NCBI GenBank assembly: GCA_016936575.1
Contig: JAFGXQ010000082.1
Location: forward strand, 333-64,332
Direction: 5' to 3'
Source: Deltaproteobacteria bacterium
Lineage (GTDB): Bacteria; Myxococcota_A; Polyangia; JAAYKL01
DNA: 64,000 nt
Both the position numbers and the translations under genes were made by a program. The notes beneath the pieces are model-generated. The model made no database searches. It was not told the origin of the DNA and saw nothing but the letters and a program-made list of their open reading frames with translations. This document shows, one piece after another, positions 30,838-63,892 of the stretch (its first letter is position 1; each line of letters starts with the position of its first letter).

Positions 30838-30939
30838 TCTTTAAGCAAAAGTGACTATCTTCTTCCCGTCGGAGTGACGACGATGTTTCGAGATAAAAAT
30901 CATTCAAAAAAATATGCATTTTTCTTTTTGGTTTTTATT

Positions 30940-31481
30940 TGCGATGCGGCAAATCGGGGCGTTGCATCATCTTCTGGTTACGGAACATCAACTTTCTCAG
31001 GTTATCCTCTTACGACTCTACGAACCTGACTCAACCGTCGGGCATCAAGTCAATGACAATATGCGTAGTGCAATTTCGCGTCATTCTCGCAGCGCCGATA
31101 ACCGCTCTCATCCGCATTCCCACAAATGTGATTATTTATCCAGTCTGACTTGTGCAAGCAGTGTGACCCCCGCTGTTGTACTGCAATTGACAGAATTGCC
31201 GGCACCTGTTCGGAGTATACAATGAGTTGATACACGAACTTGAACTGTCTTCATTCCTCCACCTTCCGTATCGACAGTTGTCTGGTGGACAACGCCAACG
31301 TACCCTTATCGCCCGTGCGCTGTTTGTTGAACCTCAGCTTCTGCTGCTCGATGAACCCACTAGCGGTCTGGATACGGAATCAACTCAAATGCTGCTCGAC
31401 TCCCTTCGACGGCTTCATGAACATATGTCTGGGGCTCGTCGGGATTATCAGATATACCCGCGTTCTTCGCAATCAGCGTAA
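30940..31481 (+). pseudogene. Degraded ABC-exporter-type ATP-binding domain
   Basis: Intact signature and Walker B ([35 protein letters not shown]) in the 84-aa ORF at 31227-31481. An upstream fragment LRLYEPDS lies in another frame. There is no Walker A or transmembrane domain, and the C-terminus is truncated. Confidence 0.55.
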
Positions 31482-33977: not shown

Positions 33978-34379
33978 CTATTTGTACTCCAGCGCACCGT
34001 GGGGACAGAAGCGGGCACACGCCGGGTCCCCTCCGCACAAATCGCATTTTTCGGATTTTCCGGTTTGCAAATTGAAATGCATATGACCGAACGGACATGC
34101 GATTTCGCACAGCCCACAGCCAATACACCGATCGGCGTTTACCTCGATGGCGCCCGTTTCCACATTGCGAACCAGTGCGCCGGTATCACACGCTTTCATG
34201 CAGGCCGCCTCGACGCATTGCAGACATGTGGTTTGCACATGGGAGTCCGGTCCCGTGGTATGAATATGAATGCGACTGCGTGCGATAATCTCCCCCTTCC
34301 CCTTTACCATGGAGCATGCCAGTTTACAGGTGCCGCAGCCGGTGCATTTTGAGGGAATCACAACCAGGGTTTTTTCCAT
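33978..34379 (-). CDS. Polyferredoxin-type 4Fe-4S protein (HycB/DmsB-like)
   Basis: Four Cys-cluster motifs: CTGCGTCKLAC, CLQCVEAAC, CIGCGLCEIACP, CDLCGGDPACARFCP. The ATG at 34379 overlaps the upstream stop by 1 nt. Confidence 0.8.
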   Translation of the reverse strand: MEKTLVVIPSKCTGCGTCKLACSMVKGKGEIIARSRIHIHTTGPDSHVQTTCLQCVEAACMKACDTGALVRNVETGAIEVNADRCIGCGLCEIACPFGHMHFNLQTGKSEKCDLCGGDPACARFCPHGALEYK

Positions 34380-35131
34380 CACGAAACCCCCAATCCCGAA
34401 AACTTCGAAGCCAATTCTTTTCGTTTGCACTCCTGGCATTGCAGATAGTAATCTTCAGGCAATTCTCGATTGGCGATGGCCCATTCCCGATAGGCCACCG
34501 GAATCAGCGGTGCGCCGCACGATTCGCATTTCGCCCGTTCAAATTCTTTCCCCCAGATTACCCGCTTCGAGGGCATATCAATCATTTCAATAAAACCGGT
34601 GGGACAAATGGCGGCGCAACTGCCGCATCCCACACAGGCATCCGGAACGGTCAGGAACGGGGGTTGTATTGATTTCCCCTGTCCTCTTCCTACCGCCGAA
34701 ATGGCATTGCATCCCATCTTTTCGCAAGCGCGGGTACACAGATAGCAGAGAATGCACTCATTGGCGTCGGGCGATGTTGAGTAACTGGTTGACTCAACAC
34801 CGTTCTCTCTCGACAAATCAAGCAGCAGCTTGTTCTCCGGTGCACGCGCCAACAACAAATCAAGGGTGGTCTGTCTGGAACGGCGGACGGCTTCTGAATG
34901 CGTAAACACTTCAATATGTGGCGCAACCTTGTACTCGCAGGCGGTAACCAGCTTTCGCTCTCCGTTCGATGAGGTTTTCACCTCAACCACACAAAGCCGG
35001 CACGCACCCACGTTTTCGAGGGCGTCGTGATGACAAAGCGACGGAATAGAAATGCCGTTTCGCTTTGCCGCACTTAATATGGTATCCCATTTTTTGGCTT
35101 CGATCTGTTTTCCATCAATTCGAAGAATCAT
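34379..35131 (-). CDS. NuoG/HydA/FdhA N-terminal-like FeS protein ([2Fe-2S] plus [4Fe-4S] domains) lacking any catalytic domain
   Basis: 250 aa. MILRIDGKQIEA...SLCHHDALENVGACRLCVVEV [2Fe-2S] fold, then CILCYLCTRAC and CVGCGSCAAICP. Confidence 0.8.
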   Translation of the reverse strand: MILRIDGKQIEAKKWDTILSAAKRNGISIPSLCHHDALENVGACRLCVVEVKTSSNGERKLVTACEYKVAPHIEVFTHSEAVRRSRQTTLDLLLARAPENKLLLDLSRENGVESTSYSTSPDANECILCYLCTRACEKMGCNAISAVGRGQGKSIQPPFLTVPDACVGCGSCAAICPTGFIEMIDMPSKRVIWGKEFERAKCESCGAPLIPVAYREWAIANRELPEDYYLQCQECKRKELASKFSGLGVS

Positions 35132-35139
35132 TGTTTTCC

Positions 35140-37029
35140 TTATTTTGCAACCTGCACTGCGTCATCCGGACAAACCTGCCGACACGCGCCGCAGCGAATG
35201 CATCTTTGCTCATCAATCACATGCGTCTGATTGGCGGAGCCGGAAATAGCATCAACAGGGCATCCGCTTTTACAGCGCAGACAACCGGTGCATTTCGTTT
35301 CGTCGATGACAAAAGTGGTCAGTCCGGCACATACGCCCGCGCGGCAACGCTTCAGATTCACATGTTCTTCAAATTCATCTCTGAAATTGTTCAGCGCAGA
35401 GAGAATCGGGTTCGGCGCAGATTTGCCCAAACCGCATAACGCGCTTTTTTTCATTTCGCACGCCAGCAGTTCGATGTCATCGAGGGTACGCTTTGTCGCA
35501 ATACCTTTCGAAATACCGTTCAGCAATGTGTGCAGCTGATACAACCCTTCTCTGCAGGGCACGCATTTTCCACACGATTCGCCCAGCAGAAACCGAGTGA
35601 AATACCTGGCCACATCCACCATACACGAACGGTCATCCATTACGATCATTCCCCCAGACCCCATCATTGAACCGACTTGTGTGAGTTCATCGAAATCCAC
35701 CGGCAAATCAAGTTTTTCAGCGGGCAGACATCCGCCGGACGGGCCGCCGGTCTGAACAGCCTTAAACGGACGGTCATTCTGTATGCCGCCACCGATGGTG
35801 AAAATTACGTCCCGCAGCGTTGTTCCCATGGGAACTTCAACCAGCCCGGTGTGCTTGACACATCCTGCTAGACAAAACGCTTTCGTGCCTTTCGATTGCT
35901 CGGTTCCGAATTTTGAAAAGCGACTTCCCGATTCGCTCAGTATAAAAGGCACACAAGCGAATGTCTCAACGTTATTCAATACCGTAGGAAGGCCGAACAG
36001 GCCCTGCTCGGTCGACCGAATATATTTTGAAGTGGGTTCGCCTATCTTTCCTTCAATACTGCGCATCAAAGCCGACGATTCTCCACAGACAAACGCGCCG
36101 CCGCCGCGAACCAGTTCTATGTTGAAGCTGAAATCGCTGTCAAAAATATTGTCTCCGAGCAGCCCGGCCTCCCGGCACATAACAATCGCCTTTCGCAACC
36201 GGGACACCGCCACCGGATACTCGTTGCGCACGTAGATGTACCCCTGACTCGCGCCGATTGCGTAGGCGCCGATGATCATTCCTTCAAGAACCACAAACGG
36301 ATTGCCTTCCATCAGCGCACAATCCATAAAGGCTCCGGGGTCGCCCTCATCACCGTTACACACAATATAACACTCGTTGTCGCCAGCTTTCGACGCGTCC
36401 ACGCACGAACGCCACTTGCGCCCGGTCGGAAACCCACCACCGCCGCGACCTCGCAACCCACTGGCATCAACAATATCGATCACTTCTTCGGGCGATTTTT
36501 GAAATGCATTGAAAAGTGCGGTAAAACCGCCCAGATGCACATACGATGCGAGACTTTGCGGAAGCAACTCGCCACAATGTTTCAACGCGAGAAGTTCCTG
36601 ATGTGCATAAAATGGTATTTCCGATTTTTGTTTCAGCGGCGTACCGCCGGGATTGCTCCGATAATATAAGCGCGCCGGCATTGAAATCTCGCCACTCGCC
36701 GCGCGTATCACATCTGCTGCATCTTTGGGGCGAACCCCTACCAGAAGCTCTCCATTCATCGTTATCAGCGGACCGGCCTGACATAATCCTTGGCAGCCGG
36801 TCATACCGATAAACGTATTCGCGTCGGATTCCAGACACTTGTCAAAATCTATTTCAATTTTTCGCTGCTGCTCCCCGGCGGCCTGGATCAACGCATCCCG
36901 TAACACTTCGGCACCGGCCGCACGGCAACCGGCACCGCCGCATACTTTAATCTGAATTGATATATTCGCTTCCCGTTTGCGGACGTGTTCAGCCCACTGG
37001 GAGAGATCACTAGCCGTTCGAATACGCAT
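35140..37029 (-). CDS. NuoF-like NAD(P)H-binding FMN flavoprotein with fused NuoE-type [2Fe-2S] domain and C-terminal 2x[4Fe-4S] (HydB/BfuB-like)
   Basis: CGGAGC...CQGLC (NuoE-type). GRGGGGFPTGRKW and CNGDEGDPGAF (FMN/NADH site). ESCGKCVPCREG. C-terminal CTGCLRCKSGCP and CIRCGACRQVCP. Start uncertain (Met27 or Met34 of the ORF). Confidence 0.85.
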   Translation of the reverse strand: MRIRTASDLSQWAEHVRKREANISIQIKVCGGAGCRAAGAEVLRDALIQAAGEQQRKIEIDFDKCLESDANTFIGMTGCQGLCQAGPLITMNGELLVGVRPKDAADVIRAASGEISMPARLYYRSNPGGTPLKQKSEIPFYAHQELLALKHCGELLPQSLASYVHLGGFTALFNAFQKSPEEVIDIVDASGLRGRGGGGFPTGRKWRSCVDASKAGDNECYIVCNGDEGDPGAFMDCALMEGNPFVVLEGMIIGAYAIGASQGYIYVRNEYPVAVSRLRKAIVMCREAGLLGDNIFDSDFSFNIELVRGGGAFVCGESSALMRSIEGKIGEPTSKYIRSTEQGLFGLPTVLNNVETFACVPFILSESGSRFSKFGTEQSKGTKAFCLAGCVKHTGLVEVPMGTTLRDVIFTIGGGIQNDRPFKAVQTGGPSGGCLPAEKLDLPVDFDELTQVGSMMGSGGMIVMDDRSCMVDVARYFTRFLLGESCGKCVPCREGLYQLHTLLNGISKGIATKRTLDDIELLACEMKKSALCGLGKSAPNPILSALNNFRDEFEEHVNLKRCRAGVCAGLTTFVIDETKCTGCLRCKSGCPVDAISGSANQTHVIDEQRCIRCGACRQVCPDDAVQVAK

Positions 37030-37624
37030 ACGTGGAATCCCGTTCCTCATCTTCCAGTTCGAGCTCAACATCATTTTCGAGACGAAGCTTGGTACCTTCT
37101 TCATAACCGGCGGCAAATGCCGACACATTCAACGGAATAAACTTGGACTTCGATGTAAACGACTCCTGTATGACTTCGATCATATCTTCTTTGGTGACAA
37201 TTTTTGACAACCCGATGAATGCACCCAAAAGCACAAGATTTGTCGCCTTCACATTTCCGAGGCCCATGGCGATATCACCTGCCGGCAGGTACAGCACATG
37301 GCAATCGTCTCGTTCAAACGATTCTCTCACCAAGGTTGAATTTACCAGAACGAGCCCTCCCGTTTTCACTTTGGGGCCGAACTTGTGCAATGAGGGCGTA
37401 TTCATCACCACGAGTGAATTGGGGCGTTCAATATATGGCGACATCACGTCTCCATCGGATATACAAACGGTTACATTGGCAGTCCCTCCGCGCATTTCGG
37501 CTCCGTACGCGGGAAGCCACGACACCTGCCTCCCTTGCTTGATCATCGCCATCGCCAACAGTTTCCCGGCCATCAACATGCCGTGCCCCCCGAAACCGGC
37601 GAACAGAACGTCTGTTGTTTTCAT
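37010..37624 (-). CDS. 2-oxoacid:ferredoxin oxidoreductase gamma subunit
   Basis: FAGFGGHGMLMAGKLLA N-terminus is typical of the gamma subunit. 4-nt overlap with beta. Confidence 0.85.
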   Translation of the reverse strand: MKTTDVLFAGFGGHGMLMAGKLLAMAMIKQGRQVSWLPAYGAEMRGGTANVTVCISDGDVMSPYIERPNSLVVMNTPSLHKFGPKVKTGGLVLVNSTLVRESFERDDCHVLYLPAGDIAMGLGNVKATNLVLLGAFIGLSKIVTKEDMIEVIQESFTSKSKFIPLNVSAFAAGYEEGTKLRLENDVELELEDEERDSTYAYSNG

Positions 37625-38379
37625 CGACTGCCTCCCTCGTGTTTTTCTGGAATCTTGTGTTCACCCAAAGGATAATAAGGTAACATATTCGTTTTCATCC
37701 AGTTAAGAGAATCTACCGGAGACATCCCCCAATTGGTCGGACAAGTGGAAAGAAATTCCACAAAGCTGAAGCAAGTATTGGATACTTGGTATTCAAATGC
37801 CTTGCGTACAATCTGTTTGGCCTTAATGATCTCAGCAGGAGAATGCATGGACACGCGTGCAATATACCCCGGTGTCTGTAATTGAGACAATATCTCAGAC
37901 ATTTTCAACGGGAATCCATCTTCCGCCACATTGCGTCCACCAGGAGTGGTGGAGGTTCGCTGCCCCGGTATGGTGGTCGGCGCCATCTGCCCTCCGGTCA
38001 TCCCGTAGATGGCGTTGTTCACGAAAATACAGGTGATTTTTTCACCACGATTCGCCGCGTGAATGATTTCAGATGTTCCGATGGCCGCTAAATCGCCGTC
38101 CCCCTGATAACAGAAAACCACCAACTCCGGTCGACACCGCTTCGCTCCGGTAGCTACCGCGGGGGCTCGTCCGTGAGATGCCTGAAACATGTCGCAGCGG
38201 AAGTATTTATAGGTGAACACCGAACATCCGACCGGCGATATGCCGACCGCTCGTTCGCGAATGCCGAGTTCAATCAGCGTTTCGCCGACCAAACGATGGA
38301 TAATTCCGTGGGTGCACCCGGGGCAGTAATGCATGGGGTCGGTAATCATTCCTTCTGTGTGAGAAAAAATCTTTCTCAT
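37621..38379 (-). CDS. 2-oxoacid:ferredoxin oxidoreductase beta (TPP-binding) subunit
   Basis: YCPGCTHG and YQGDGDLAAIG TPP motifs. 4-nt overlaps on both sides. Confidence 0.9.
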   Translation of the reverse strand: MRKIFSHTEGMITDPMHYCPGCTHGIIHRLVGETLIELGIRERAVGISPVGCSVFTYKYFRCDMFQASHGRAPAVATGAKRCRPELVVFCYQGDGDLAAIGTSEIIHAANRGEKITCIFVNNAIYGMTGGQMAPTTIPGQRTSTTPGGRNVAEDGFPLKMSEILSQLQTPGYIARVSMHSPAEIIKAKQIVRKAFEYQVSNTCFSFVEFLSTCPTNWGMSPVDSLNWMKTNMLPYYPLGEHKIPEKHEGGSR

Positions 38380-39452
38380 GCAACCCCTCCCTTGATCTTC
38401 GCCAATGTACTGTGAACACTCTCAATAACATCTTCTATTGAAGGAGTCAGACCACCGCACTTGCCCATAAAATCAACTTCGCGTTTTCCGTTGGCGGCCA
38501 GTTGAATGTCAACCAGCATCTGGCCCATATTCATTTCAACATCGAGCACGCGCTTCGATTTAAAAATCGCTGCCGAGCACTGCTCCGAGGGAAACGGCTT
38601 GACAGTGATCGGCCGAAACATTCCCACATTAATGCCCTGCCCTTTCAGCTCCTGAATCGCCGACTTGCATACGCGACTCATTACACCGAAAGCGGTTATG
38701 AGCACATCGTACGGTTCATCGCAATTATATAATTCATGGCGGGCTTCATTGTCTTTAATCACTTTGTATCGCGCAAACCGTTCGTGATTTTTTTCATTTA
38801 ATTCGACAGGGTCCAGAAACAGCGATGACACCAGTCGTGGTTCGCGTCCCTTGCATCCGGTAAGTGCCCAGTCGGCAGCCTTCATGGGTGGCCCTACCTC
38901 CACATCGGGAAACTCCACTGGTTCCATCATCTGGCCTATCATCCCATCGCCCAACAACATCACCGGATTGCGGTATTTTTCAGCCAGTTCGAAACTCAAG
39001 ATAGTGAGATCAACTGCCTCCTGAACGGATGACGGCGCCAACACAATCAACTCGAAATCGCCGTGAGCGGTGCCGCGCGTGGCATGTGCGTAATCGCTCT
39101 GTGCAGGTAGAATCCCCGCCAATCCAGGGCCGGCACGCATCATATTGACAATCACAGCCGGCAGCTCAGCCCCGGCCAGATATGACAACCCCTCAGACAT
39201 GAGACTGATTCCCGGTGATGACGACGACGTCATCACGCGCACTCCCACACCGGCGGCGCCGAAGATCATATTACTGGTAGCCACTTCACTCTCGGTCTGA
39301 ATATATTTTCCGCCCACCTGGGGCAGACGCTTGGAAAGATATTCGGGTAGTTCATTTTGAGGGGTAATCGGATAACCGAAAAAATGAAGACACCCCGCCT
39401 TGATGGCGGCTTCTCCAATGGCTTCATTTCCCTTCATCAAAATTTTTGCCAT
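38376..39452 (-). CDS. 2-oxoacid:ferredoxin oxidoreductase alpha subunit
   Basis: MAKILMKGNEAIGEAAIKAG...GYPITPQNE N-terminus. Start moved to ATG at 39452. Confidence 0.9.
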   Translation of the reverse strand: MAKILMKGNEAIGEAAIKAGCLHFFGYPITPQNELPEYLSKRLPQVGGKYIQTESEVATSNMIFGAAGVGVRVMTSSSSPGISLMSEGLSYLAGAELPAVIVNMMRAGPGLAGILPAQSDYAHATRGTAHGDFELIVLAPSSVQEAVDLTILSFELAEKYRNPVMLLGDGMIGQMMEPVEFPDVEVGPPMKAADWALTGCKGREPRLVSSLFLDPVELNEKNHERFARYKVIKDNEARHELYNCDEPYDVLITAFGVMSRVCKSAIQELKGQGINVGMFRPITVKPFPSEQCSAAIFKSKRVLDVEMNMGQMLVDIQLAANGKREVDFMGKCGGLTPSIEDVIESVHSTLAKIKGGVA

Positions 39453-39463
39453 ACGTTCACTTC

Positions 39464-39697
39464 CTAGTACGGATAAAATTCGTATCGACAGCCTTCGGCA
39501 AATACTTCTATCGCCAGGTCCGGACACGACAACGCGCAGAGTTTACATCCGATACACCGGGGTTTATCCACCACCTGGGCATAGCGAAACCCCTGCGTGT
39601 TGATCTTATCTGACAGTCGAATAATCTTTTGGGGGCACGCATTGATGCACAATTCGCACCCCTTGCATTTATCATTTACTACCTTGATTAAAGGCAT
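39464..39697 (-). CDS. 2-oxoacid:ferredoxin oxidoreductase delta subunit (2x[4Fe-4S])
   Basis: 77 aa with CKGCELCINACP and CIGCKLCALSCP. Confidence 0.8.
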   Translation of the reverse strand: MPLIKVVNDKCKGCELCINACPQKIIRLSDKINTQGFRYAQVVDKPRCIGCKLCALSCPDLAIEVFAEGCRYEFYPY

Positions 39698-39700
39698 CAG

Positions 39701-40489
39701 TCATCCTCTTCTGTCTGCTGCGGCAATAGGCCATGAGTTTTGAGCGTCGTGATTGAGCCAAGGTGGCAGCATCCGTCTGTTTAGTACACAAATAGGATAA
39801 TCGGACGCGTTTTTCAACTTTGTTGTGTCTGTGACACCCTCCATTACCGTTGTGAATGCGACCGGCACCTTCGATTGATGAACCAACTGTTCACAAAGTG
39901 CCATACCTGCACGAACAATGCTTTCGTCGGTATATTCCATTAGATGTGTATTATTAATATAAGCGCCCACTGTAAGACCGGCCACGGTTTCAATTCTCGA
40001 TTTCATTTCAAGACAACCGGCAACCGTACCTGTAAAGGGACGACGCTCGTTGATCACCTGATACAACATGTAAGGGGCATCTCCAATGGCGCTGCGCAAA
40101 GAAGCGAGCACCTTGGCGCCGGTCTCGTCCCCGCCCACATCAAAAAATGAAAAGTCATCGTCGGCCCGCTGCAGCATTCCCTTTATTTGTGGAACCAACA
40201 CAGGCAAATCGCTGAATTGAACTTCTCCATGGGGAACCACCGGAACAACCCCCTGCTCCCGTAAAAACTGTTGTGCTTCCCGACTGCGAAAATACGGATT
40301 GGCCATATCGAGGTCCGCAAGTTTGACGCGATGTCCGAACCGGGCGAGCGCTGCAGTCCAATTTACGGATATTTCGGTCTTGCCGCTACCGAAGCTGCCG
40401 ACAATTATGTTCAGTCGTTTTACAGGTACAGGAAAGCCACTGACATCAATGTCACCGACAACTTTTACCTCATGCTCACTACGACTCAT
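39701..40489 (-). CDS. P-loop NTPase of unclear family, first gene of the OFOR operon
   Basis: Walker A GSFGSGKTE, then KLADLDMANP. 262 aa. 3-nt gap to the delta subunit gene. Confidence 0.65.
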   Translation of the reverse strand: MSRSEHEVKVVGDIDVSGFPVPVKRLNIIVGSFGSGKTEISVNWTAALARFGHRVKLADLDMANPYFRSREAQQFLREQGVVPVVPHGEVQFSDLPVLVPQIKGMLQRADDDFSFFDVGGDETGAKVLASLRSAIGDAPYMLYQVINERRPFTGTVAGCLEMKSRIETVAGLTVGAYINNTHLMEYTDESIVRAGMALCEQLVHQSKVPVAFTTVMEGVTDTTKLKNASDYPICVLNRRMLPPWLNHDAQNSWPIAAADRRG

Positions 40490-40590
40490 TACGCTTCTTC
40501 CTCACAGCGGGTTTCAGATACAATAACAGGTAACAGAGCAATGTCATATATTTGTCATAAGAACGGCTATTTGAACCAGAAAAAACGACC

Positions 40591-43376: not shown

Positions 43377-43787
43377 TTATGCCTCGCGGATTTGCTGCGT
43401 CCCCGAAGAAATCGCAATTGCCTCTTGCCAGGTCATATGAAGCTCTTCCAGAGCGGAAATAACCGGCACGAGCGGTTCACTGGTCATAGTGTTGTATGCA
43501 TCAGTCATTTTTTCCATCATCGAGTGGTACAACGACTGCAAATCCGCACACAGTTCCGGCGCCAGATCAAAATCAAGCGAATCAATGAAATGCTCAATAA
43601 TCCAGTACGCCTTTCCGAGACTGAACAGTTGCTCTGCCGTCTTGTCACCGGAATCGATTTCTTCTCTGGCCTGTTTCACATTCCGAATTGCGCTGGCGTA
43701 CAGTGCTAACAACAGCTCATTGCGATTCATCTCCTTCGGGATGGGAACTACAGGCGTTTGTTCAACGTTTCGAAGTTCGTTCTGCAT
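43377..43787 (-). CDS. fliS: Flagellar export chaperone FliS (divergent copy 1)
   Basis: 136 aa. The LLLALYASAIRNVKQAREEI...AYWIIEHFIDSLDFDLAPELCADLQSLYHSM pattern matches FliS. Directly downstream of a flagellin gene. Confidence 0.8.
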   Translation of the reverse strand: MQNELRNVEQTPVVPIPKEMNRNELLLALYASAIRNVKQAREEIDSGDKTAEQLFSLGKAYWIIEHFIDSLDFDLAPELCADLQSLYHSMMEKMTDAYNTMTSEPLVPVISALEELHMTWQEAIAISSGTQQIREA

Positions 43788-43846: not shown

Positions 43847-44677
43847 TTACTGTCCGATGAGCGCCAACGCCATCTGCGGCAACTGGTTTGCCTGCGACAA
43901 CACCGATATGCCCGCCTGCATTAAAATCTGACTGCGCGTCTGGGTTACGGTTTCCTCGGCGACATCCACGTCTCGAATTCGACTGTTCGCGGCCGACAGA
44001 TTTTCACGCTGAGTCGCCAGGTTTTTAATGGTGCTCGCCAATCGATTCTGAATAGCACCCAAGTCACCGCGAATTTTCGATACGCTGTTAATCGCCGTAT
44101 CCAATGAGGTCAGTGCATTTCTCGCATTTGAACCGGTTCCACCGCTGATTTGTACTCCGGCGAGACCGATACCTGACGTACTCATCGTACTGATCACCAC
44201 TTGAATTCGATCATCAATATGATTTCGAATGCCAACCTGCAAATCAAACGATGCGGTACCATCCAACAGCTGCATGCCGTTGAAATCTGTGACTCCCGCA
44301 ATACGATCGATTTCCTCCATCAGTTCATTCAGTTCGTTGTTCAGGTAACCACGCTCTTGAGACCCCAGGGTCCCTGTAGCCGCCTGAACCGCCAACTCCC
44401 TGCACCGAATCAGAATGTTGCCGACCTCGTTCAATGCACCTTCAGCAACCTGCACCAACGAAATGCCGTCCTGCGCGTTTCGCTCCGCCTGCCCCAGTCC
44501 ACGAATTTGTGCGCGCAATTTTTCAGAAATGGCCAGGCCCGCAGCGTCGTCTTTAGATGCCGTGATTCGCATACCAGACGACAATCGCGCCATGCTGGTG
44601 TTCAGTGAGTCTTCAGTTCTGCTCAAGTTCCGTTGAGCATTCATAGAAGCAATATTGGTATTAATTACCAGTCCCAT
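43847..44677 (-). CDS. fliC: Flagellin (copy 1, 276 aa)
   Basis: [18 protein letters not shown]...[22 protein letters not shown]-terminus and ..[29 protein letters not shown]-terminus. Confidence 0.95.
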   Translation of the reverse strand: MGLVINTNIASMNAQRNLSRTEDSLNTSMARLSSGMRITASKDDAAGLAISEKLRAQIRGLGQAERNAQDGISLVQVAEGALNEVGNILIRCRELAVQAATGTLGSQERGYLNNELNELMEEIDRIAGVTDFNGMQLLDGTASFDLQVGIRNHIDDRIQVVISTMSTSGIGLAGVQISGGTGSNARNALTSLDTAINSVSKIRGDLGAIQNRLASTIKNLATQRENLSAANSRIRDVDVAEETVTQTRSQILMQAGISVLSQANQLPQMALALIGQ

Positions 44678-45890: not shown

Positions 45891-47192
45891 TTAAAACATC
45901 ATTGAAGACATATAACTCATCTGTGATTGAAGCTGGTTCATTGAAATTTCCATTGCGGTGAATTTGGCCACAAGTCCTTGTTCATATCCATCGATACGGC
46001 CTTCCTCCTGAAGAATCGAATTCTCCAGATTCGAAATCATCTTCTGCAAGCCGCTTTCCTGCGCTTTCAATACACCGTCCACACTGGACACATATCTATC
46101 GATAAACTCATCCAGAATATCTCCCAACCCGTTAACACTACCATCGTCATTTCCGGCAAATAGTTGAGCCACACCACGAGTATCTCGTGCCAATGCTTCT
46201 TCCAAATCATCAGAATCCAATGACAAAGAACCGTCACTGCCGGTTTTTATGCCGATTTGAGAAAGTGCTTTAAATACCCCACCCACATCGCCGATTTCGC
46301 TGGCAATGGTCATTCCCATCTGCATTTGAAGAGATCGCAGGGTCGAGTTCGAAGAAGAATCCTTTTTCACGAGCGCCATGATTTCATTGTAACTGTCAAC
46401 AAAACCTTTCAGTGTCTCTTCGATTTTGTCGTCATCCGGCTGAATTTTCAGCTGAAAAGAATCTTCGGTTTCCTCATTTACATTAATGGTGACCCCGGTC
46501 AGCACATCCTCAAATGTATTGGTGTCGCTGTTAATGGTAATATTATCGATTGTAATTTCAGCACTCTGAGCACTTTTAAATTCCGAAAAACCGAAATTCA
46601 GCGTTCCCGACTCAGCGAAGGAAATCCCCGCATCCAACGGATCACCGGTTTCCTTGCCGGCAATTTGCACCGTGTATTCACTGCCGTTAAACAGCAGACT
46701 GGCACTCACACCGGCATCGGAGCCATTGATTTCGTTTACGATGTCTTCGAGCGACATCGTGTCAGTAATCTCGATATCCACCGCATCGCCGGAACCCACT
46801 GTAATCGAAAGCGTTCCCTCTCCAGCAGCGCCCAACGCCGTTTTGTCGGCAAATGTAGCGGTGGAGTAGTCTCTTTCCGCCTGCGCCAATCGAACCACTT
46901 TCACATCATAAACACCGGGGGATGCGTCACCTGTTGCGGTGACATCCATGGCGTCTTCCTCTGAAAACACCGCGGAGTAGGAGAGGAAATCACCAATCTC
47001 AGACATCTCCTGCATGGTTGTCTGCAGCGTCTGCAACTTTGAATTTAGCGTTCGAATTCCCGATAGCTGATCATTGTACTCTTTCTTCTGATTTTCCATC
47101 TGCCGAAGGCCGGCTTTCTCTGAATAAACAAAAGACTCAACAATGGACCCGGTATCGATACCAGAGCTGATCCCCGAAAAGGTGATACCCAT
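45891..47192 (-). CDS. fliD: Flagellar filament cap protein FliD
   Basis: MGITFSGISSGIDTGSIV N-terminus and coiled-coil termini. AAGGAG RBS. Confidence 0.9.
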   Translation of the reverse strand: MGITFSGISSGIDTGSIVESFVYSEKAGLRQMENQKKEYNDQLSGIRTLNSKLQTLQTTMQEMSEIGDFLSYSAVFSEEDAMDVTATGDASPGVYDVKVVRLAQAERDYSTATFADKTALGAAGEGTLSITVGSGDAVDIEITDTMSLEDIVNEINGSDAGVSASLLFNGSEYTVQIAGKETGDPLDAGISFAESGTLNFGFSEFKSAQSAEITIDNITINSDTNTFEDVLTGVTINVNEETEDSFQLKIQPDDDKIEETLKGFVDSYNEIMALVKKDSSSNSTLRSLQMQMGMTIASEIGDVGGVFKALSQIGIKTGSDGSLSLDSDDLEEALARDTRGVAQLFAGNDDGSVNGLGDILDEFIDRYVSSVDGVLKAQESGLQKMISNLENSILQEEGRIDGYEQGLVAKFTAMEISMNQLQSQMSYMSSMMF

Positions 47193-47653: not shown

Positions 47654-48484
47654 TCAGCCGATTAACGCCAGCGCCATGCTCGGCAAACCATTTGCCTGGG
47701 CAAGCACTGCTGTTCCGGCCTGCATAAGGATCTGGCTCTTCGTCATTTCAACTGACTCAGAGGCAACATCGACGTCTCGAATTCGGCTGTTCGAGGCCGC
47801 CAAATTTTCACGGGTTGTCGCAAGGTTATTCACGGTGCTTGACAATCGGTTTTGATAAGCACCCAAAATGCCTCGCTGTTCAGAAAGGTTCGTGATTGCC
47901 GTGTCAATCGTGTCAATCGCCGAAAGCGCATCTGTTGCTGTAGAAATATTCTCACTGTCGACGTCAATGTGTGACGATGTCGCCCTAACGTCAGTCAATT
48001 CGACGTCCAGCTGATTGTCGGCGGCAGCTGTGCCGATACCAATCTGCAGTGATACAGTAGAATCTCCATTCAGCAAGGAAATGCCGTTGAATTCAGTCGA
48101 ATTCGCAATTCGCGTGATTTCGTCTGACAGTTGACTGAATTCGTTGTTCAGGAATCCTTTCTGATCCGAATCGGTTGTCCCGTTGGCAGACTGCACCGCC
48201 AGTTCTCTCATTCGAATAAGCATGCCGCTGATTTCGTCCATTGCGCCTTCGGCCGTCTGTACCAGCGAAATTCCGTCGTTGGCGTTTCGTTCCGCCTGAC
48301 TCAGCCCACGAATCTGGGCTTTCATTTTTTCGCTGATGGCCAATCCCGCCGCGTCGTCTTTGGCAGAGGTAATCCTCAAGCCCGAAGACAGACGCGCCAT
48401 GCTCGTCGAAAGAGAGGAACTGGTCCGTGTCAAGTTCCTCTGGGCGTTAATCGCCTGCGTATTTGTGTTTATTACCAATCCCAT
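47654..48484 (-). CDS. fliC: Flagellin (copy 2, 276 aa)
   Basis: Canonical flagellin N- and C-termini. AAGGAGG RBS. Confidence 0.95.
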
Positions 48485-55240: not shown

Positions 55241-58200
55241 TTACTGAACGGTACAATCACTTTTGCGCACGAGGTCGTACTGATTGTTGTTGGTGTCGAT
55301 ACCGTTGCCGATGCGCGCGAAGCAGGTGGCTTTGACGTTCGTAAACGCATTGGGCTGGGTTTCGGCGGATTGCTCAAAACCTTCCATTACTTCAAACGAA
55401 TCAATGAGCAGATCGCTGCACACCAGCTGATATGAAAAGCTGCTTTTCGGCGGAATGTGCGTTACGTTCTGCGTATCTTCGATGGTTCGCCACGGCACGT
55501 CGAGACTGGTGACAAACACGCGACCGTCTGCGGGAACCGTTCCGGAAAGCTGCAGAGACGGCCCCTCAGTGGGGACAGTTTCCGAATCGGGAGTGGTATC
55601 TGTGTCGAATTCAGCAGCAGGCAAAGGACGAATCAACTGACAGTTTTCAAGAGATGTTCCCGGTTCCATCTGAAGTTCAACGTAGGTATTGTCAATTTCG
55701 GTACTCACCTGACGAATAATTGCGGGCTGCCGAACATTCACCATGTAGTACCCGAATGTACCCATTTCACCTCGCAACTCCAGTTCTTCCACGTCACTCG
55801 CGTTCACATATAAAATCGGATCCGGACCCCCGGCGAAATTTGTGGTGGACATTACTGCCATATCATTCTCGTCATATGCAGTCAGAACCGTATCGGGAGT
55901 GGAACGGCCAAGACGATCGAGGGTTCGTGCAGATATTACAATGGCGATTCGACAGTCTGCGTCAGGAAGCATCTCGGTAATATTATCAGTGTATGGCGCA
56001 ATATCCATCGTCGTAAGGTCACCATCTGCCGTATATTTTGTATAGTTTTCAAGTTCTTCAAAATACAACATCGGAGATACACAAGGAGTCACACCATCCA
56101 TGTTTTGACCGGTAGAATCCGTATCAGCGTTTTCGCTATCATTCACTTCTGTGGTATCGGTATCACCCATGTCTGACACTTCAAGGGGTTCGTTCAAATG
56201 CCCCATCGAAGTAATGGTGAACTGATATCCTTCTGTCGCACCGCCCACGATCTGATTTTTCTGACTGGACGCCCACAGCACAAAACGTTTGTTACCAAAA
56301 ACCCATAACACACCGTCATCAGCAACTGCCTTGAGGTTTCCCCTGTCGAACCAATCCACCAGATGGACCGTTGCCGGTGTATAATATTCCGGGGCGGTTT
56401 TAAATGCGACCACTTTAACGAAAGTAACCGGTTTTGACAGAATATCTTCTACATTTTCCCATGGAAAAGATACGGTGGTATATGCCGCTGTCTCACCGAA
56501 ATCAGAAGACGACCTCGTGTCCTGAAAGCCGACTTCCACTGAATCCAAATTCACCTGCTCTGTAACGGGCATGTCTTTGTCGCCAATCGACCAGAATCCG
56601 ATTGCCGCCCCCTGAGAAGTTGTTACGCCGACAGGTATTCTTAAATTGTATTCAGACAGTTCCGCTTCCCTTGCCAACCCGTAGCTGAAATCCGCCGTCA
56701 TCGTTGCTGAAATACTGCCTTCGTCAGAAATATTGTCAACATCGGCATCATAGCCCGAAATGATTGGAGATACCCGCGTAACCAATGACCCTAGAAGCGG
56801 TCGATTCTCAGCGGACATCGACGGCAATTGAATATTTAAAAACCCAACATTTCGCGCCCCTGGAACCACAGAGGATGGGTTCAATGTAGCCGTGAGGGAA
56901 TCGTCTTCGTCGCCGTTTTCGTCAAATGCGTCCACAATTTCGACGGGAATCACAAATTGACGTCCGTCAATCGACACGGTCACACCGAACCAGCCGCCTG
57001 GCCCCTCCTCTTCGAGTGAAAACACGATGGCGATGCCGGTCTCACTTTGATTTTCAGCAGTGGTGTAGTAGCGTTCCACGTTCACGCCGATATCTTCGTA
57101 AATAGAAATTCCGGTGGGTTTCCCGACGTACGCTCCGTCGAGTGTCGCAAACACTTTGCCGAGGCCTTTCGCACGGGAAATAGACATTTGTTTCACGCTG
57201 CGCAGCGGCATCGTATCGTCTTTTTCGGCGCGCAAATTCACCGCCTGTTGTTGCCCCCCGCTGTAGAAATAGAATGTTTTTATGCCTCGCCGGACACTGC
57301 GTGAAATATTCAGCGTAACGGTTGCGGTGCTCTGCATGTCCGGATCCAACACCATCTCTTCCACCTGTATTCCGGCGTCGTTGATGAACAGCTGTGTGTC
57401 CGGCCCAAATGTGAATCCTCCCTGGCCTGAAAACACAATCGTTGCGGTTCGGTTCGCCAGCCAGATGATTTCGAAGTCGCTCAATATGTACGCTCCTTGC
57501 CCCAGAGCCGGCTCCACATCAAAGAAACCTTCATCGCTGAATTTCTTTACATTGCTGTATGTTGTCATGCTCATGGGCCCGGTCGGTGCATCCGCCTCAA
57601 CGGAGAAATCATCCAGCACCAGATGTTCGTTGTATTCTGAAATATCGGTATCTGTGTTGTCGTCTTCCTCCAGTGTATCGGAAGGAATACCGCCGTACAG
57701 ATAAAAATCTGCCAGTGTGTCCTTATAAAATTTTCCGACCTGTTTCTTCACCACTTCCTCATCGTCCTCGCCGCGATTCGCCGTATCTAATTTTATAAGG
57801 GCGTTACCGGCCACCTGATTGATCAATAGATGGGTGACGATTTCATCGGTTCCATTTGTAAACTGCAACCGTATTGAGTCAACCCCGGAGGTTGCTTGAG
57901 CCTGCACCCACAGCGCCCATTCCTTGGGCCCCATCATGCGACGAACAATCGTGACACTGGAATCGACAGGGAACACCTCCCATGACGCATCGAATTCAAA
58001 ACCAATCGGCTTTACAAAAACCAGTTGCTTCGGACACTCATCTCCGATGTGGCAATTCGCACCGGCGGTTCCACAGGCGCAGCTCGGAATGATGGGGGGA
58101 GAAAGCTGAACAGCGTGGTCGTCAAAACCGGTGGGGACAATATTGACCGATGCATATGACACTGCACCGTCGAGACTGATCATCATCGCTGCCGGTCCGA

Positions 58201-59221
58201 GAATGGCGGAATTATCGACCGTCACGGTGCAAAACGCTTTCAGCGGATCGCTTGCAGATATGCGAATAGAGCTTTTATCCACAATAATTCCCGGATTCTG
58301 GGGAAACTCAAATGACAGATATGGAGCACTTCCAACGTATGTATCGGGGGCTTTCAACAAGTCATCTTTGCTGGTGATGGTAAGATCGTATTGGACCTCA
58401 GCGCCGTTATACAACGGTTTTCCCAGTCGCGTCGGGGTAATGGAAATGGTCGGATGCTCTCCGGGAACAATATTGATTTCTCCGTAATAAACCGTCGGAT
58501 AACTCACCAACATGACCTCAACCGCTTTTTTCCTGGAATCGTCTATTCCGGGGTCCAACGCAAGCTCAGATACATCGAGCACAACCGTCACGATTGTATT
58601 TTGCTCATTAATTGAGATGTCCTGAACCAGAATATCGTCGTCATCCACGCTGAAAAAGATGCTGGTCGGCTTGCTGGAAAACGTGGGCGGCATTTCGGTA
58701 TCGTCGCCAACGAGGGAAATATGAATTTCCTGCTCGGACTTTCCGTTCACCAGATAGCCGGGTTCAAATTGAAGATTGTATTCCTGAATTTTTTTTCGAA
58801 CATAAAATCGCGCCGAAACCCGTTCATTCGTATTACATTGAAATTCAAGCACATAGGTTCCCGAAGGCACATTCTGCCCCAATGACAACGAAATCGCCAT
58901 CCGCTCTGAAGATACGTGTTCCATGGCGGCCAACTGAATTTGACTTTGACGGGTTTGGGTGGTCGCATCGAAAAAAGAAAAATGAACCGCCAGATATTCA
59001 ATCGGCTGAGAATCCCAATCGTCTAGAGTTTCACATGTGCTGAAATCAATTGTGCCGCCGGTGATATCAACCAGCACTTCTTCACCCACATACATGGTTG
59101 CGGGCTTCATCAACACCGGCGCATTCGGTAGAACGTCGGAGGACGGCTTACATCCGAATAGCATTATGACTGCGAAAAACCAACAAATATGAAAGGTTCT
59201 CAAAGCTCTACTTGCAAGCAT
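55241..59221 (-). CDS. Giant (1326-aa) acidic lipoprotein of unknown function
   Basis: Uninterrupted ORF. Lipobox MLFGCK. No catalytic or repeat motif recognised by eye. Confidence 0.75.
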   Translation of the reverse strand: MLASRALRTFHICWFFAVIMLFGCKPSSDVLPNAPVLMKPATMYVGEEVLVDITGGTIDFSTCETLDDWDSQPIEYLAVHFSFFDATTQTRQSQIQLAAMEHVSSERMAISLSLGQNVPSGTYVLEFQCNTNERVSARFYVRKKIQEYNLQFEPGYLVNGKSEQEIHISLVGDDTEMPPTFSSKPTSIFFSVDDDDILVQDISINEQNTIVTVVLDVSELALDPGIDDSRKKAVEVMLVSYPTVYYGEINIVPGEHPTISITPTRLGKPLYNGAEVQYDLTITSKDDLLKAPDTYVGSAPYLSFEFPQNPGIIVDKSSIRISASDPLKAFCTVTVDNSAILGPAAMMISLDGAVSYASVNIVPTGFDDHAVQLSPPIIPSCACGTAGANCHIGDECPKQLVFVKPIGFEFDASWEVFPVDSSVTIVRRMMGPKEWALWVQAQATSGVDSIRLQFTNGTDEIVTHLLINQVAGNALIKLDTANRGEDDEEVVKKQVGKFYKDTLADFYLYGGIPSDTLEEDDNTDTDISEYNEHLVLDDFSVEADAPTGPMSMTTYSNVKKFSDEGFFDVEPALGQGAYILSDFEIIWLANRTATIVFSGQGGFTFGPDTQLFINDAGIQVEEMVLDPDMQSTATVTLNISRSVRRGIKTFYFYSGGQQQAVNLRAEKDDTMPLRSVKQMSISRAKGLGKVFATLDGAYVGKPTGISIYEDIGVNVERYYTTAENQSETGIAIVFSLEEEGPGGWFGVTVSIDGRQFVIPVEIVDAFDENGDEDDSLTATLNPSSVVPGARNVGFLNIQLPSMSAENRPLLGSLVTRVSPIISGYDADVDNISDEGSISATMTADFSYGLAREAELSEYNLRIPVGVTTSQGAAIGFWSIGDKDMPVTEQVNLDSVEVGFQDTRSSSDFGETAAYTTVSFPWENVEDILSKPVTFVKVVAFKTAPEYYTPATVHLVDWFDRGNLKAVADDGVLWVFGNKRFVLWASSQKNQIVGGATEGYQFTITSMGHLNEPLEVSDMGDTDTTEVNDSENADTDSTGQNMDGVTPCVSPMLYFEELENYTKYTADGDLTTMDIAPYTDNITEMLPDADCRIAIVISARTLDRLGRSTPDTVLTAYDENDMAVMSTTNFAGGPDPILYVNASDVEELELRGEMGTFGYYMVNVRQPAIIRQVSTEIDNTYVELQMEPGTSLENCQLIRPLPAAEFDTDTTPDSETVPTEGPSLQLSGTVPADGRVFVTSLDVPWRTIEDTQNVTHIPPKSSFSYQLVCSDLLIDSFEVMEGFEQSAETQPNAFTNVKATCFARIGNGIDTNNNQYDLVRKSDCTVQ

Positions 59222-63064: not shown

Positions 63065-63892
63065 TTAGATGAGGCTCAACGCCATCGACGGTACGCCGTT
63101 GGCTTGTGCCAACACAGCGGTACCCGCCTGCATCAGAATTTGACTCCGTGTCATGCTCACAGATTCCTCGGCAACGTCAACGTCGCGGATTCGGCTGTTC
63201 GATGCGGACAGATTCTCTCTGGTGGTCGCCAGGTTGCGAACGGTGCTGTCCAATCTGTTTTGGGCCGCACCCAATACACCGCGCTGTTCTGACAGATCGG
63301 TAATCGCGGTATCTAACGCGTCAATCGCAGAAAGTGCGTTGGTGGCGGTGTCGATTGTTTCAGTGCCAGTGTCAACAGACAGCCCTGAAGCGGTTACGTC
63401 CATCAAGGATACCGATATTTTACTATCAGTATCATTCTTGATGCCGACCTGCAACGTTACAGAAGTAGTGCTTCCATCGGTCAGGTTTGTTCCGTTGAAC
63501 TCTGTGGAGTTCGCAATACGGCTGATTTCAGATGCCAGCTCGCCAAATTCGTTGTTCAAAAATCCTTTCTGATCCGAGTCGGTGGTGCCGTTCGCGGACT
63601 GTACCGCCAGCTCGCGCATACGAATCAGCATGCCGCTGATTTCGTCCATGGCGCCTTCAGCCGTCTGCACCAGTGAAATACCGTCGTTCGCGTTGCGTTC
63701 CGCTTGGGCGAGACCGCGAATCTGTGCTTTCATTTTTTCACTGATCGCAAGGCCGGCAGCGTCGTCTTTGGCAGCGGTGATGCGCTGACCGGAAGACAGT
63801 CTTGCCATGCTGGTGGACAGAGATGAACTTGTTTTCGACAGGTTCCGTTGTGCATTAATTGACATTGTGTTGGTGTTAATTACCATTCCCAT
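63065..63892 (-). CDS. fliC: Flagellin (copy 3, 275 aa)
   Basis: Canonical termini. Shares a 53-residue identical block with copy 2. Confidence 0.95.
   Translation of the reverse strand: MGMVINTNTMSINAQRNLSKTSSSLSTSMARLSSGQRITAAKDDAAGLAISEKMKAQIRGLAQAERNANDGISLVQTAEGAMDEISGMLIRMRELAVQSANGTTDSDQKGFLNNEFGELASEISRIANSTEFNGTNLTDGSTTSVTLQVGIKNDTDSKISVSLMDVTASGLSVDTGTETIDTATNALSAIDALDTAITDLSEQRGVLGAAQNRLDSTVRNLATTRENLSASNSRIRDVDVAEESVSMTRSQILMQAGTAVLAQANGVPSMALSLI

Follow-up and report, generated by a model that had tools for sequence, protein, structure and literature searches.

Enzymes of the Bfu type are the least understood of the electron-bifurcating classes. The BfuABC family was defined by Schut et al. 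in 2022 (PMC9304861), who also predicted a class named Por-Bfu, which comprised 12 sequences from Dehalococcoides and syntrophic Proteobacteria and was unpurified. The conserved core for bifurcation is the pair BfuBC, in which BfuC supplies cluster C1 of the site where bifurcation is proposed to occur (PMC9304861, PMC11829005). This site is described as [B1-FMN-C1] (FMN, flavin mononucleotide), where C1 lies on the mobile C-terminal domain of BfuC and shuttles low-potential electrons to clusters B3/B4 and to ferredoxin, and the N-terminal domain of BfuC is wedged between BfuA and BfuB (PMC11829005, PMC9304861). Here we describe an operon of eight genes on the minus strand of a 64,000-nucleotide stretch of DNA (the window, 64 kb in all) from a Deltaproteobacteria bacterium of the Myxococcota (class Polyangia; contig JAFGXQ010000082.1 of assembly GCA_016936575.1). 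The operon combines the genes of a 2-oxoacid:ferredoxin oxidoreductase (OFOR) with those of a Bfu module from which BfuC is absent, and it may encode a non-bifurcating, NAD-linked OFOR complex.

Several published features of the family are needed to read this locus. BfuC adjoins BfuB in nearly every one of 1558 HydB operons surveyed by Schut et al. (PMC9304861), and the electron path A1-B1-FMN excludes C1 (PMC11829005). The B2 (or Zn) site has conserved His and Cys ligands that set bifurcating BfuB proteins apart from non-bifurcating NuoF homologues (PMC9304861), and non-bifurcating BfuB homologues lack the sites B2-B5 (PMC11829005). In the Wor enzyme, WorA has a helix and a Zn finger that serve as the plug between the bifurcating core and a wire made of WorS units; the BfuA of Por-Bfu has the Zn finger and lacks the C-terminal helix, and no WorS homologue is present in Por-Bfu (PMC12318220).

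The eight open reading frames (ORFs) of the operon lie at 33978-40489, where they are co-directional and tightly packed. The features of the region are as follows.

39701-40489, minus strand: P-loop NTPase of the SIMIBI class, 262 aa, first gene of the operon (a weak CbiA/MinD match is its sole Pfam match)
39464-39697, minus strand: OFOR delta subunit, 77 aa, 2x[4Fe-4S] (Fer4 dicluster domains)
38376-39452, minus strand: OFOR alpha subunit, 358 aa, start MAKILMKG (POR_N + PFOR_II)
37621-38379, minus strand: OFOR beta subunit, 252 aa, binding thiamine pyrophosphate (TPP) (TPP_enzyme_C and PorB_KorB-type matches)
37010-37624, minus strand: OFOR gamma subunit, 204 aa, with an acidic C-terminal tail (POR domain)
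37010-37029, no strand assigned: gamma/BfuB junction, 20-nt overlap, the site of bfuC (a NuoE-like gene of ~155 aa) in relatives
35140-37029, minus strand: BfuB/HydB-type flavoprotein, 629 aa (Pfam domains, full-length HydB and WorB structure matches)
34379-35131, minus strand: BfuA, WorA-like, 250 aa (best PDB match 9mqx_A)
33978-34379, minus strand: WorS/AorA-like four-cluster ferredoxin, 133 aa (matches to 9mqx_E and 8c0z_C)
40520-40547, minus strand: sigma-70-like promoter match (weak evidence), located upstream of the gene for the P-loop protein

An earlier sequence-only reading of the window had reported eight minus-strand genes here, and all of them were found where it had placed them, with the overlaps it had given: ATGA-type overlaps of 4 nt at alpha/beta (38376-38379) and beta/gamma (37621-37624), and a TGATG overlap of 1 nt between BfuA and the polyferredoxin at 34379. 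That reading had put gaps of at most 12 nt at the remaining junctions, which is correct for P-loop/delta (3 nt, 39701 / 39697), delta/alpha (11 nt, 39464 / 39452) and BfuB/BfuA (8 nt, 35140 / 35131) and wrong for gamma and the flavoprotein. Alignment with homologues places the start of BfuB at the ATG at 37029 (MRIRTASD..., 629 aa), two independent gene calls concur, and gamma stops at 37010, so that the two genes overlap by 20 nt instead of being separated by a small gap. The flavoprotein thus has 629 aa and not 630 as first given, with the domain content as first given; more broadly, annotation of the products with the hidden Markov models of Pfam and NCBIfam agrees with the domains that had been described. 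Identical operon DNA was assembled independently from the sequencing runs SRR13394436 and SRR13394437. Scans of the region for promoters and terminators gave as many matches as expected from shuffled sequence, and the match at 40520-40547 is therefore merely compatible with an operon start and no proof of one. An Rfam search of the window gave zero matches.

The arrangement is a recurrent one. A scan with BfuB against one genome per species (GTDB) yielded 80 loci at 47-57% identity, against which all eight window proteins were compared by tblastn. The colinear OFOR-Bfu cluster was found in at least 33 complete loci of species representatives from six named phyla, and in several truncated loci besides. 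Its carriers belong to Myxococcota, Acidobacteriota (Thermoanaerobaculia, Holophagae, Sulfomarinibacter), Zixibacteria, Ignavibacteriales, Phycisphaerales/Planctomycetota and Calditrichota, and include Anaeromyxobacter. Given its recurrence in dozens of genomes, the gene arrangement is far from a chance one, and the proposal of a single unit made up of OFOR and NuoF/NuoG-like genes has withstood the possibility that their adjacency is unique and non-conserved. Flanking genes conserved across phyla were sought as a hint to the substrate and none were found; the cluster is therefore a self-contained module. When the same question was approached from the OFOR side in metagenomes of the Joint Genome Institute (JGI), 32 loci had enough downstream DNA, among which 23 were stand-alone [P-loop]-delta-alpha-beta-gamma clusters, 8 carried BfuC-BfuB-BfuA-ferredoxin, and 1 had the OFOR with a ferredoxin match only. 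The Bfu module is thus an optional add-on to this OFOR, with constant order. The remaining BfuB-related loci come mostly from Firmicutes and Coriobacteriia and have a WorS-like gene ~3 kb upstream of BfuC-BfuB-BfuA, by which they are taken to be of the Wor-Bfu type; a few loci from Syntrophaceae/Thermodesulfobacteriota have a distant POR-type OFOR in the order gamma-delta-alpha-beta and no WorS.

All four subunits of an OFOR can be recognized in the window. Alpha matches the NCBIfam family VorB (PRK07119) with 496.8 bits against a cut-off of 399 and combines POR_N with PFOR_II, beta has the GDG...NN motif for TPP and four Cys (CPGC, GCSV, STCP) as read from its sequence, gamma has a POR domain, and delta holds 2x[4Fe-4S], with OGOR_delta and OorD as its best NCBIfam matches and all 8 of its 8 Cys invariant in 9 relatives. 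Assignment of a substrate by way of solved OFOR structures was abandoned, as the nearest ones (1yd7, 8ys5, 6n2n) align with the N-terminal ~185 aa of alpha only. The P-loop protein has at least 565 homologues at E<=1e-10, which are mostly labelled 'CbiA' or 'ATP-binding'. Its AlphaFold2 model (pLDDT 81, pTM 0.81; both are confidence scores of the model) resembles NTPases of the SIMIBI class related to the signal recognition particle (SRP-type) and FlhF in a Foldseek search, at TM scores of 0.5-0.57 and identities of 14-22%, which amounts to a general resemblance only. Walker A (GxxGSGKTE) and C159 are among its invariant residues. In at least 17 metagenome loci (e.g., L111, L112, L116, and L124) the P-loop gene heads stand-alone delta-alpha-beta-gamma clusters that have no Bfu genes, and the name 'cobalamin biosynthesis' that comes with CbiA is therefore very probably a misannotation. 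The sequence-only reading had counted this gene into the eight-gene set; it is indeed the first gene of the operon, though one that goes with the OFOR and not with the NADH module. By inference, it is a probable assembly or maturation factor of the OFOR.

The flavoprotein contains the Pfam domains 2Fe-2S_thioredx, Complex1_51K, SLBB, NADH_4Fe-4S, and two Fer4, and thereby the domains of a BfuB of the BfuABC family (IPR011538, IPR019554, IPR019575, IPR017896). From its N to its C terminus these hold a thioredoxin-like [2Fe-2S] site (B5), the FMN/NAD(H) site, the [4Fe-4S] cluster B1, the His/Cys site B2 (or Zn), and 2x[4Fe-4S] (B3/B4). It matches the bifurcating HydB of T. kivui (8a6t_B, 684 bits) and WorB (9mqx_B, 654 bits) over the full length, which bears out the earlier description of a NuoF-like protein of a possibly bifurcating family. 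The same description had taken the motif CGGAGC...CQGLC as a NuoE part; it belongs to BfuB's own N-terminal domain, for homologues such as those of L001 and L008 begin with this [2Fe-2S] domain too and yet are accompanied by a separate NuoE-like BfuC gene of 155-158 aa, which also rules out that the 629-aa protein is a NuoE/NuoF fusion. The His and Cys of the B2/Zn site (SCMVD ... EEHVNLKRCRAGVC) are conserved in the window and in its relatives L083 and L084.

Downstream of BfuB, BfuA shows Fer2_4 and a Fer4_21/Fer4_7 dicluster, as is usual for BfuA in the BfuABC family, and is laid out as [2Fe-2S] A1, 2x[4Fe-4S], a C-terminal CxxC...CxxC Zn finger, and a helix-like KRKELASKF segment. It aligns with WorA (9mqx_A, 247 aa) over residues 4-244 (E 6.5e-52), so that the early description of a NuoG-like protein ending before any catalytic domain is accurate, the ending being normal for this WorA-like family. 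The C-termini of BfuA and WorA correspond through residue 244 (CESCGA...CQECKRKELASKF versus CPICGQ...CPTCRKREYASKF, with the helix KRKELASKF versus RKREYASKF), and a Zn finger and helix like those of WorA are thus predicted at the end of the window's BfuA; all 16 of its Cys remain invariant across 9 relatives, those lacking BfuB among them. The ferredoxin carries 16 Cys in four CxxCxxCxxxC-type motifs, all invariant in relatives, and matches WorS (9mqx_E, 152 aa) over residues 1-132 (E 1.5e-32) and AorA (8c0z_C, E 1.1e-31). It ends at residue 133, directly after the last Cys motif, which corresponds to residue 131 of the 152 in WorS, and has no equivalent of the C-terminal helix by which WorS oligomerizes, so that a single copy of the adaptor is predicted and no wire. 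Its length is 133-135 aa in the clade of the window compared with 156-163 aa for WorS in Wor-Bfu loci. The best NCBIfam match of the ferredoxin is the N-terminal domain of PadI (110 bits). As the polyferredoxin aligns with PadI positions 5-135 and the window's OFOR beta with positions 227-365, PadI fuses a WorS-like domain to an OFOR beta, from which it can be argued in the manner of a Rosetta stone that the adaptor binds the OFOR.

What sets the window apart is the absence of BfuC. In 78 of the 80 related loci BfuC is encoded between gamma and BfuB, and the other two loci start inside BfuB. Within the 64-kb window, no NuoE-like BfuC (IPR002023) is encoded with BfuB: tblastn of the window with two BfuC proteins gave no match except BfuB's own N-terminal domain, and blastx with small words at the gamma/BfuB junction gave no bfuC remnant over noise. 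The loci L083 (BfuB 66% identical to that of the window) and L084 (62%), which come from other samples, are also BfuC-less over their 15-17 kb, keep the 20-nt overlap of gamma and BfuB, and share the acyltransferase, FliS, flagellin, and HIT neighbours of the window. The three nearest outgroups (BfuB 58-60%) all have BfuC. Since C1 is part of the bifurcation site, canonical bifurcation is unlikely for the enzyme of the window, unless a BfuC is encoded elsewhere.

The window, L083, L084, L088 (GCA_016937015.1), and L089 make up a five-member clade of uncultured Myxococcota without BfuC; a scan of the JGI metagenomes with alpha for further members gave nothing above 69% identity. L088 and L089 have the P-loop gene, the OFOR, BfuA, and the ferredoxin and neither BfuC nor BfuB; the flanking synteny of L089 is that of the window, their alpha and beta subunits are 84-86% and 91-92% identical to those of the window, and the ligands of BfuA, ferredoxin, and delta are all intact. 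The gamma subunit has changed in step with the loss. Its acidic tail (window 37010-37090; ...EDEERDSTYAYSNG) reaches ~16-20 aa beyond the 183-189-aa homologues, is seen in members of the BfuC-less clade, where it ends in ...SYAYSNG in 4 of the 5 (the end differs in L088), and is absent in all BfuC-containing homologues. The tail arose together with the loss of bfuC and has been kept even where BfuB is gone (L088, L089).

In the clade, BfuB evolves faster than any other gene of the redox chain. Identity between the window and the other BfuC-less genomes is 87-91% for alpha, 91-92% for beta, 83-87% for delta, 86% for the ferredoxin, 76-80% for gamma, and 74-77% for BfuA, and it falls to 62-66% for BfuB. 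Divided by the mean identity of alpha and beta, BfuB identity comes to 0.70-0.72 in the three BfuC-less pairs compared with 0.83-1.02 in ~125 BfuC-containing control pairs; in control pairs with alpha and beta at 85-89%, BfuB stands at ~82-87%. In nonsynonymous divergence (dN), BfuB has 0.28-0.34 and alpha 0.07-0.11 in the BfuC-less pairs. The ratio of the two is 3.0-4.3 here, whereas an outgroup pair gives 1.0. Synonymous divergence (dS) is saturated or undefined for most pairs, which leaves the dN ratios and an upper bound on omega (dN/dS) as the usable measures, and as dS is saturated, omega of BfuB lies well below 1. The excess change peaks in the N-terminal [2Fe-2S] domain (44-50% versus 62-89% identity) and the linker that follows it. 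In the three BfuC-less BfuB proteins the ligands of FMN/NADH, B1, B2/Zn (Cys-His-Cys-Cys), B3/B4 (8 Cys), and B5 (4 Cys) have all been kept, and with dN/dS well below 1 BfuB is therefore still a working protein. The simplest history is that bfuC was lost in the common ancestor of the five members, that the constraint on BfuB was then relaxed, and that bfuB was later lost in one branch.

From this material we infer a physical complex, its electron path, NAD+ as the acceptor, and the absence of bifurcation. The operon would encode one multi-subunit enzyme derived from the widespread nine-gene module of P-loop, delta-alpha-beta-gamma, BfuC, BfuB, BfuA, and WorS-like ferredoxin. The VorB-family OFOR would oxidize a 2-oxoacid with coenzyme A (CoA) at TPP, and the electrons would pass through the [4Fe-4S] cluster of beta and the two clusters of delta to the four clusters of the WorS-like adaptor. 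From there they would enter BfuA (2x[4Fe-4S] and the [2Fe-2S] cluster A1), docked through its 'plug' of Zn finger and helix, and reach cluster B1 and FMN in BfuB, where NAD+ would be reduced. In the ancestral nine-gene form, C1 of BfuC would have diverted low-potential electrons to B3/B4 and ferredoxin, that is, the enzyme would have bifurcated. The ancestor of the clade would then have deleted bfuC and been left with an exergonic 2-oxoacid:NAD+ oxidoreductase, the NADH branch of which came under weakened selection and was lost outright in the sister genomes. Non-bifurcating reduction of NAD+ is proposed because the path A1-B1-FMN-NAD needs no C1. With a potential of about -500 mV for the pyruvate couple and -320 mV for NAD (Table 1, PMC9304861), such a reaction would be strongly exergonic.

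We give about even chances to the reading that the window encodes a non-bifurcating, NAD-linked (or partly uncoupled) OFOR complex under reductive evolution. Of the two options in the sequence-only reading, an NAD(P)-coupled or a bifurcating 2-oxoacid oxidoreductase, an NAD-linked OFOR-Bfu enzyme is thus favoured, and canonical bifurcation is unlikely with BfuC missing. A number of points weigh against this. The window shows 64 kb of the genome, and bfuC may sit elsewhere. The ligands of B2, B3/B4, and B5, whose canonical role is in the ferredoxin branch, are perfectly conserved across three lineages whose BfuB proteins have diverged at 34-38% of their residues, which suggests that this branch still matters and is hard to square with a dead one. 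NuoF-type flavoproteins are generally unstable without a NuoE-like partner. In every characterized non-bifurcating relative the NuoE-like module is retained and the additional domains of BfuB are missing (PMC7311640), the reverse of the window, and the OFOR-Bfu classes are all still unpurified. Together with the purifying selection on BfuB, the retained ligands and the limited view of the genome also speak for a BfuC supplied in trans, from a bfuC that has moved or from the HydC/NuoE-like subunit of a different complex. In that case the enzyme would remain a canonical OFOR of the Bfu type, bifurcating or confurcating, in which oxidation of a 2-oxoacid is coupled to concurrent reduction of both NAD+ and ferredoxin, or the reverse for reductive carboxylation. 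We regard this as improbable, with perhaps one chance in a handful, as BfuC stands beside BfuB in 78 of 80 related loci and in nearly every one of 1558 HydB operons of Schut et al., as neither the window nor the 15-17-kb loci of its two relatives hold one, as a BfuB that changes 3-4 times faster, most of all in its N-terminal domain and linker, would be unexpected if its partner had merely moved, and as sister genomes do without BfuB entirely.

These sister genomes also allow a different picture, to which we give the same low standing as to a BfuC in trans. In it, the working enzyme consists of the OFOR, the WorS-like ferredoxin, and BfuA, which deliver electrons to free ferredoxin or flavodoxin or to another partner, and BfuB persists as a slowly decaying or repurposed appendage. 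L088 and L089 have no BfuB and yet keep the P-loop, OFOR, BfuA, and ferredoxin ligands intact, BfuB evolves fastest of the clade's redox chain, and stand-alone P-delta-alpha-beta-gamma OFORs of this subfamily are common. On the other hand, an intact BfuB ORF of 624-629 aa persists in three lineages with saturated synonymous sites, neither its FMN/NADH motifs nor any of its 20 metal ligands have changed, which speaks for a function still in use, and its translational coupling through the 20-nt overlap is conserved. The retention of every ferredoxin-branch ligand would be explained if the B5 domain of BfuB, which is homologous to the cluster domain of BfuC and the fastest-changing part of BfuB in the clade, had been remodelled into the role of C1; BfuA-BfuB would then be a minimal bifurcating core without BfuC by which NAD+ and ferredoxin are both reduced. 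We consider this a long shot. Least probable is that two independent enzymes adjoin here, an ordinary ferredoxin-dependent OFOR and a separate NADH-linked iron-sulphur flavoprotein of other function. Stand-alone versions of the OFOR do exist, and the complex is a prediction from genes; however, the gene order is fixed with overlapping stop and start codons across six phyla, the OFOR is the sole catalytic partner of a Bfu module that has a WorA-type plug and a WorS-type adaptor, the PadI fusion ties the WorS-like domain to an OFOR beta, and in the solved structure of WorABC(SL)3 the counterparts of these proteins are assembled into a single complex (PMC12318220).

Some further observations concern the wider family. 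The Zn-finger Cys of BfuA are lost in some members of the OFOR-Bfu family (L010, L033, L047, and L002), and in some members the WorS-like protein is extended at its C terminus to a length of 144-162 aa; details of plug and adaptor hence vary within the family. In 9 loci of Acidobacteriota (L009, L010, L013, L014, L017, and others) an ORF of ~170 aa that looks ferritin/rubrerythrin-like from its sequence lies downstream of the ferredoxin. In L085 (10060-11395), L086 (10002-10436), and L087 (10074-11465), the ferredoxin gene is coupled translationally at its end to an ORF of ~144 aa without a Pfam match, which is followed in two of them by a protein with Fer4 and nitroreductase domains; the window has neither of these two genes of its nearest outgroups. 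BfuB homologues of 792-808 aa suggested BfuC-BfuB fusions, one of which seemed to share the contig of L088; it lies on an unrelated contig of the European Nucleotide Archive (ENA), in other gene context. A natural BfuC-BfuB fusion of 792 aa does occur in L090 (8001-15586), where a BfuA-like protein of 648 aa that includes an FlpD domain and two FAD/NAD oxidoreductases come after it, a Bfu-type cluster of a function other than OFOR-Bfu.

Elsewhere in the window, three flagellin genes (43847-44677, 47654-48484, and 63065-63892), fliD (45891-47192), and fliS (43377-43787) are present in a host that its ribosomal protein S1 places among uncultured Myxococcota near Polyangia. Cultured Myxococcota glide and are not known to have flagella. 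Two adjoining large genes for multihaem cytochromes c lie at 11-3717, the second of which (760 aa) is fused to a membrane domain of the cytochrome b561 type; they suggest a respiratory or extracellular electron-transfer module. A minus-strand ORF of 1326 aa at 55241-59221 has no Pfam match at E<=1e-4. At 30914-31481 on the plus strand, an 84-aa ORF with only the signature/Walker B part of an ATP-binding cassette (ABC) transporter ATPase follows a 103-aa ORF without domains. Together they resemble an ABC ATPase gene that has been truncated or frameshifted; the gene caller split it likewise in L081 and L082.

The cluster represents a second and widespread OFOR-Bfu architecture, which works with a plug and adaptor of the WorA/WorS kind, unlike the published Por-Bfu prediction, and for which many candidate source genomes are available. 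The BfuC-less clade in turn offers a natural deletion series from the full module to one without BfuC and on to one without BfuC and BfuB. It bears on whether BfuC and C1 are indispensable and on the roles of BfuB, BfuA, and the adaptor when BfuC is absent, and its three natural forms thus provide a handle on the current [B1-FMN-C1] model of bifurcation. If the enzyme should simply be an NAD-linked OFOR, the addition would be a modest one, showing how respiring anaerobes turn a ferredoxin-producing reaction into an NADH-producing one. For annotation, two lessons can be drawn: the 'NuoE-like' motif in HydB-type proteins is not a NuoE subunit, and a 'CbiA' gene in such clusters is a probable accessory NTPase of an OFOR.

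Compared with known systems, the locus stands closest in concept to Por-Bfu, a term that a full-text search met in two papers only. Since a bifurcating OFOR-Bfu enzyme was predicted in 2022 (PMC9304861), the core idea of the sequence-only reading is not new. Por-Bfu (e.g., in Dehalococcoides mccartyi 195 and syntrophic Deltaproteobacteria) shares with the window four OFOR subunits clustered with HydABC-like Bfu genes, a bifurcating-type BfuB that has additional iron-sulphur domains at both ends and the conserved His, a truncated BfuA without a catalytic domain, and the fact of being biochemically uncharacterized. It differs in its order gamma-delta-alpha-beta-BfuC-BfuB-BfuA and in its POR-like OFOR, which is 25-29% identical to that of the window (e.g., L074), whereas the window has the order P-loop-delta-alpha-beta-gamma-[BfuC]-BfuB-BfuA-WorS-like, an OFOR of the VorB family, a WorS homologue, a WorA-like C-terminus of BfuA, and no BfuC. 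No description of the window-type architecture was found in the literature, a search that did not cover the organisms behind the 12 Por-Bfu sequences, one of which may be of the window type.

An OFOR that feeds electrons to NAD+ and not to free ferredoxin is the phenylglyoxylate:NAD+ oxidoreductase PadEFGHI of Azoarcus/Aromatoleum (Hirsch et al. 1998, as cited by PMC5109826; NCBIfam models NF045762/64/66). Its beta subunit PadI has an N-terminal four-cluster domain homologous to the separate ferredoxin of the window. Scores of the window against PadG, PadI, and PadE are 45-110 bits compared with cut-offs of 300-700, too low for an equivalog, the OFOR subunits are distant (E 1e-12 to 1e-18), and a gene for the Pad-type flavoprotein is absent from the cluster. 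The NAD-reducing subunit of Pad is a different, FAD-containing protein and not an FMN protein of the NuoF/BfuB type with BfuA. The use of NAD(H) without ferredoxin that is proposed here is also found in the non-bifurcating NADH-dependent [FeFe]-hydrogenases HydAB and Hyd1ABC of Syntrophus and Syntrophomonas, which unlike the window keep the NuoE-like module, either fused or separate (PMC7311640). The window reverses the pattern of the non-bifurcating HydB, having lost the NuoE-like module and kept the [2Fe-2S] domain at the N terminus of BfuB as well as the 2x[4Fe-4S] at its C terminus, and no precedent for this combination was found in the literature. With the tungsten aldehyde oxidoreductase WorABC(SL)3 of Acetomicrobium mobile (9MQX, PMC12318220) the window shares the pairs BfuA/WorA, ferredoxin/WorS, and BfuB/WorB and the logic of a core that plugs into an adaptor; unlike that enzyme, it has a TPP-dependent OFOR as the catalytic partner and no gene for the tungstopterin protein WorL in the cluster, an adaptor without the C-terminal helix that builds the three-copy nanowire, and no BfuC/WorC. 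The operon is thus a variant of the published OFOR-Bfu hypothesis, with a plug of the WorA/WorS type, in a lineage that deleted BfuC.

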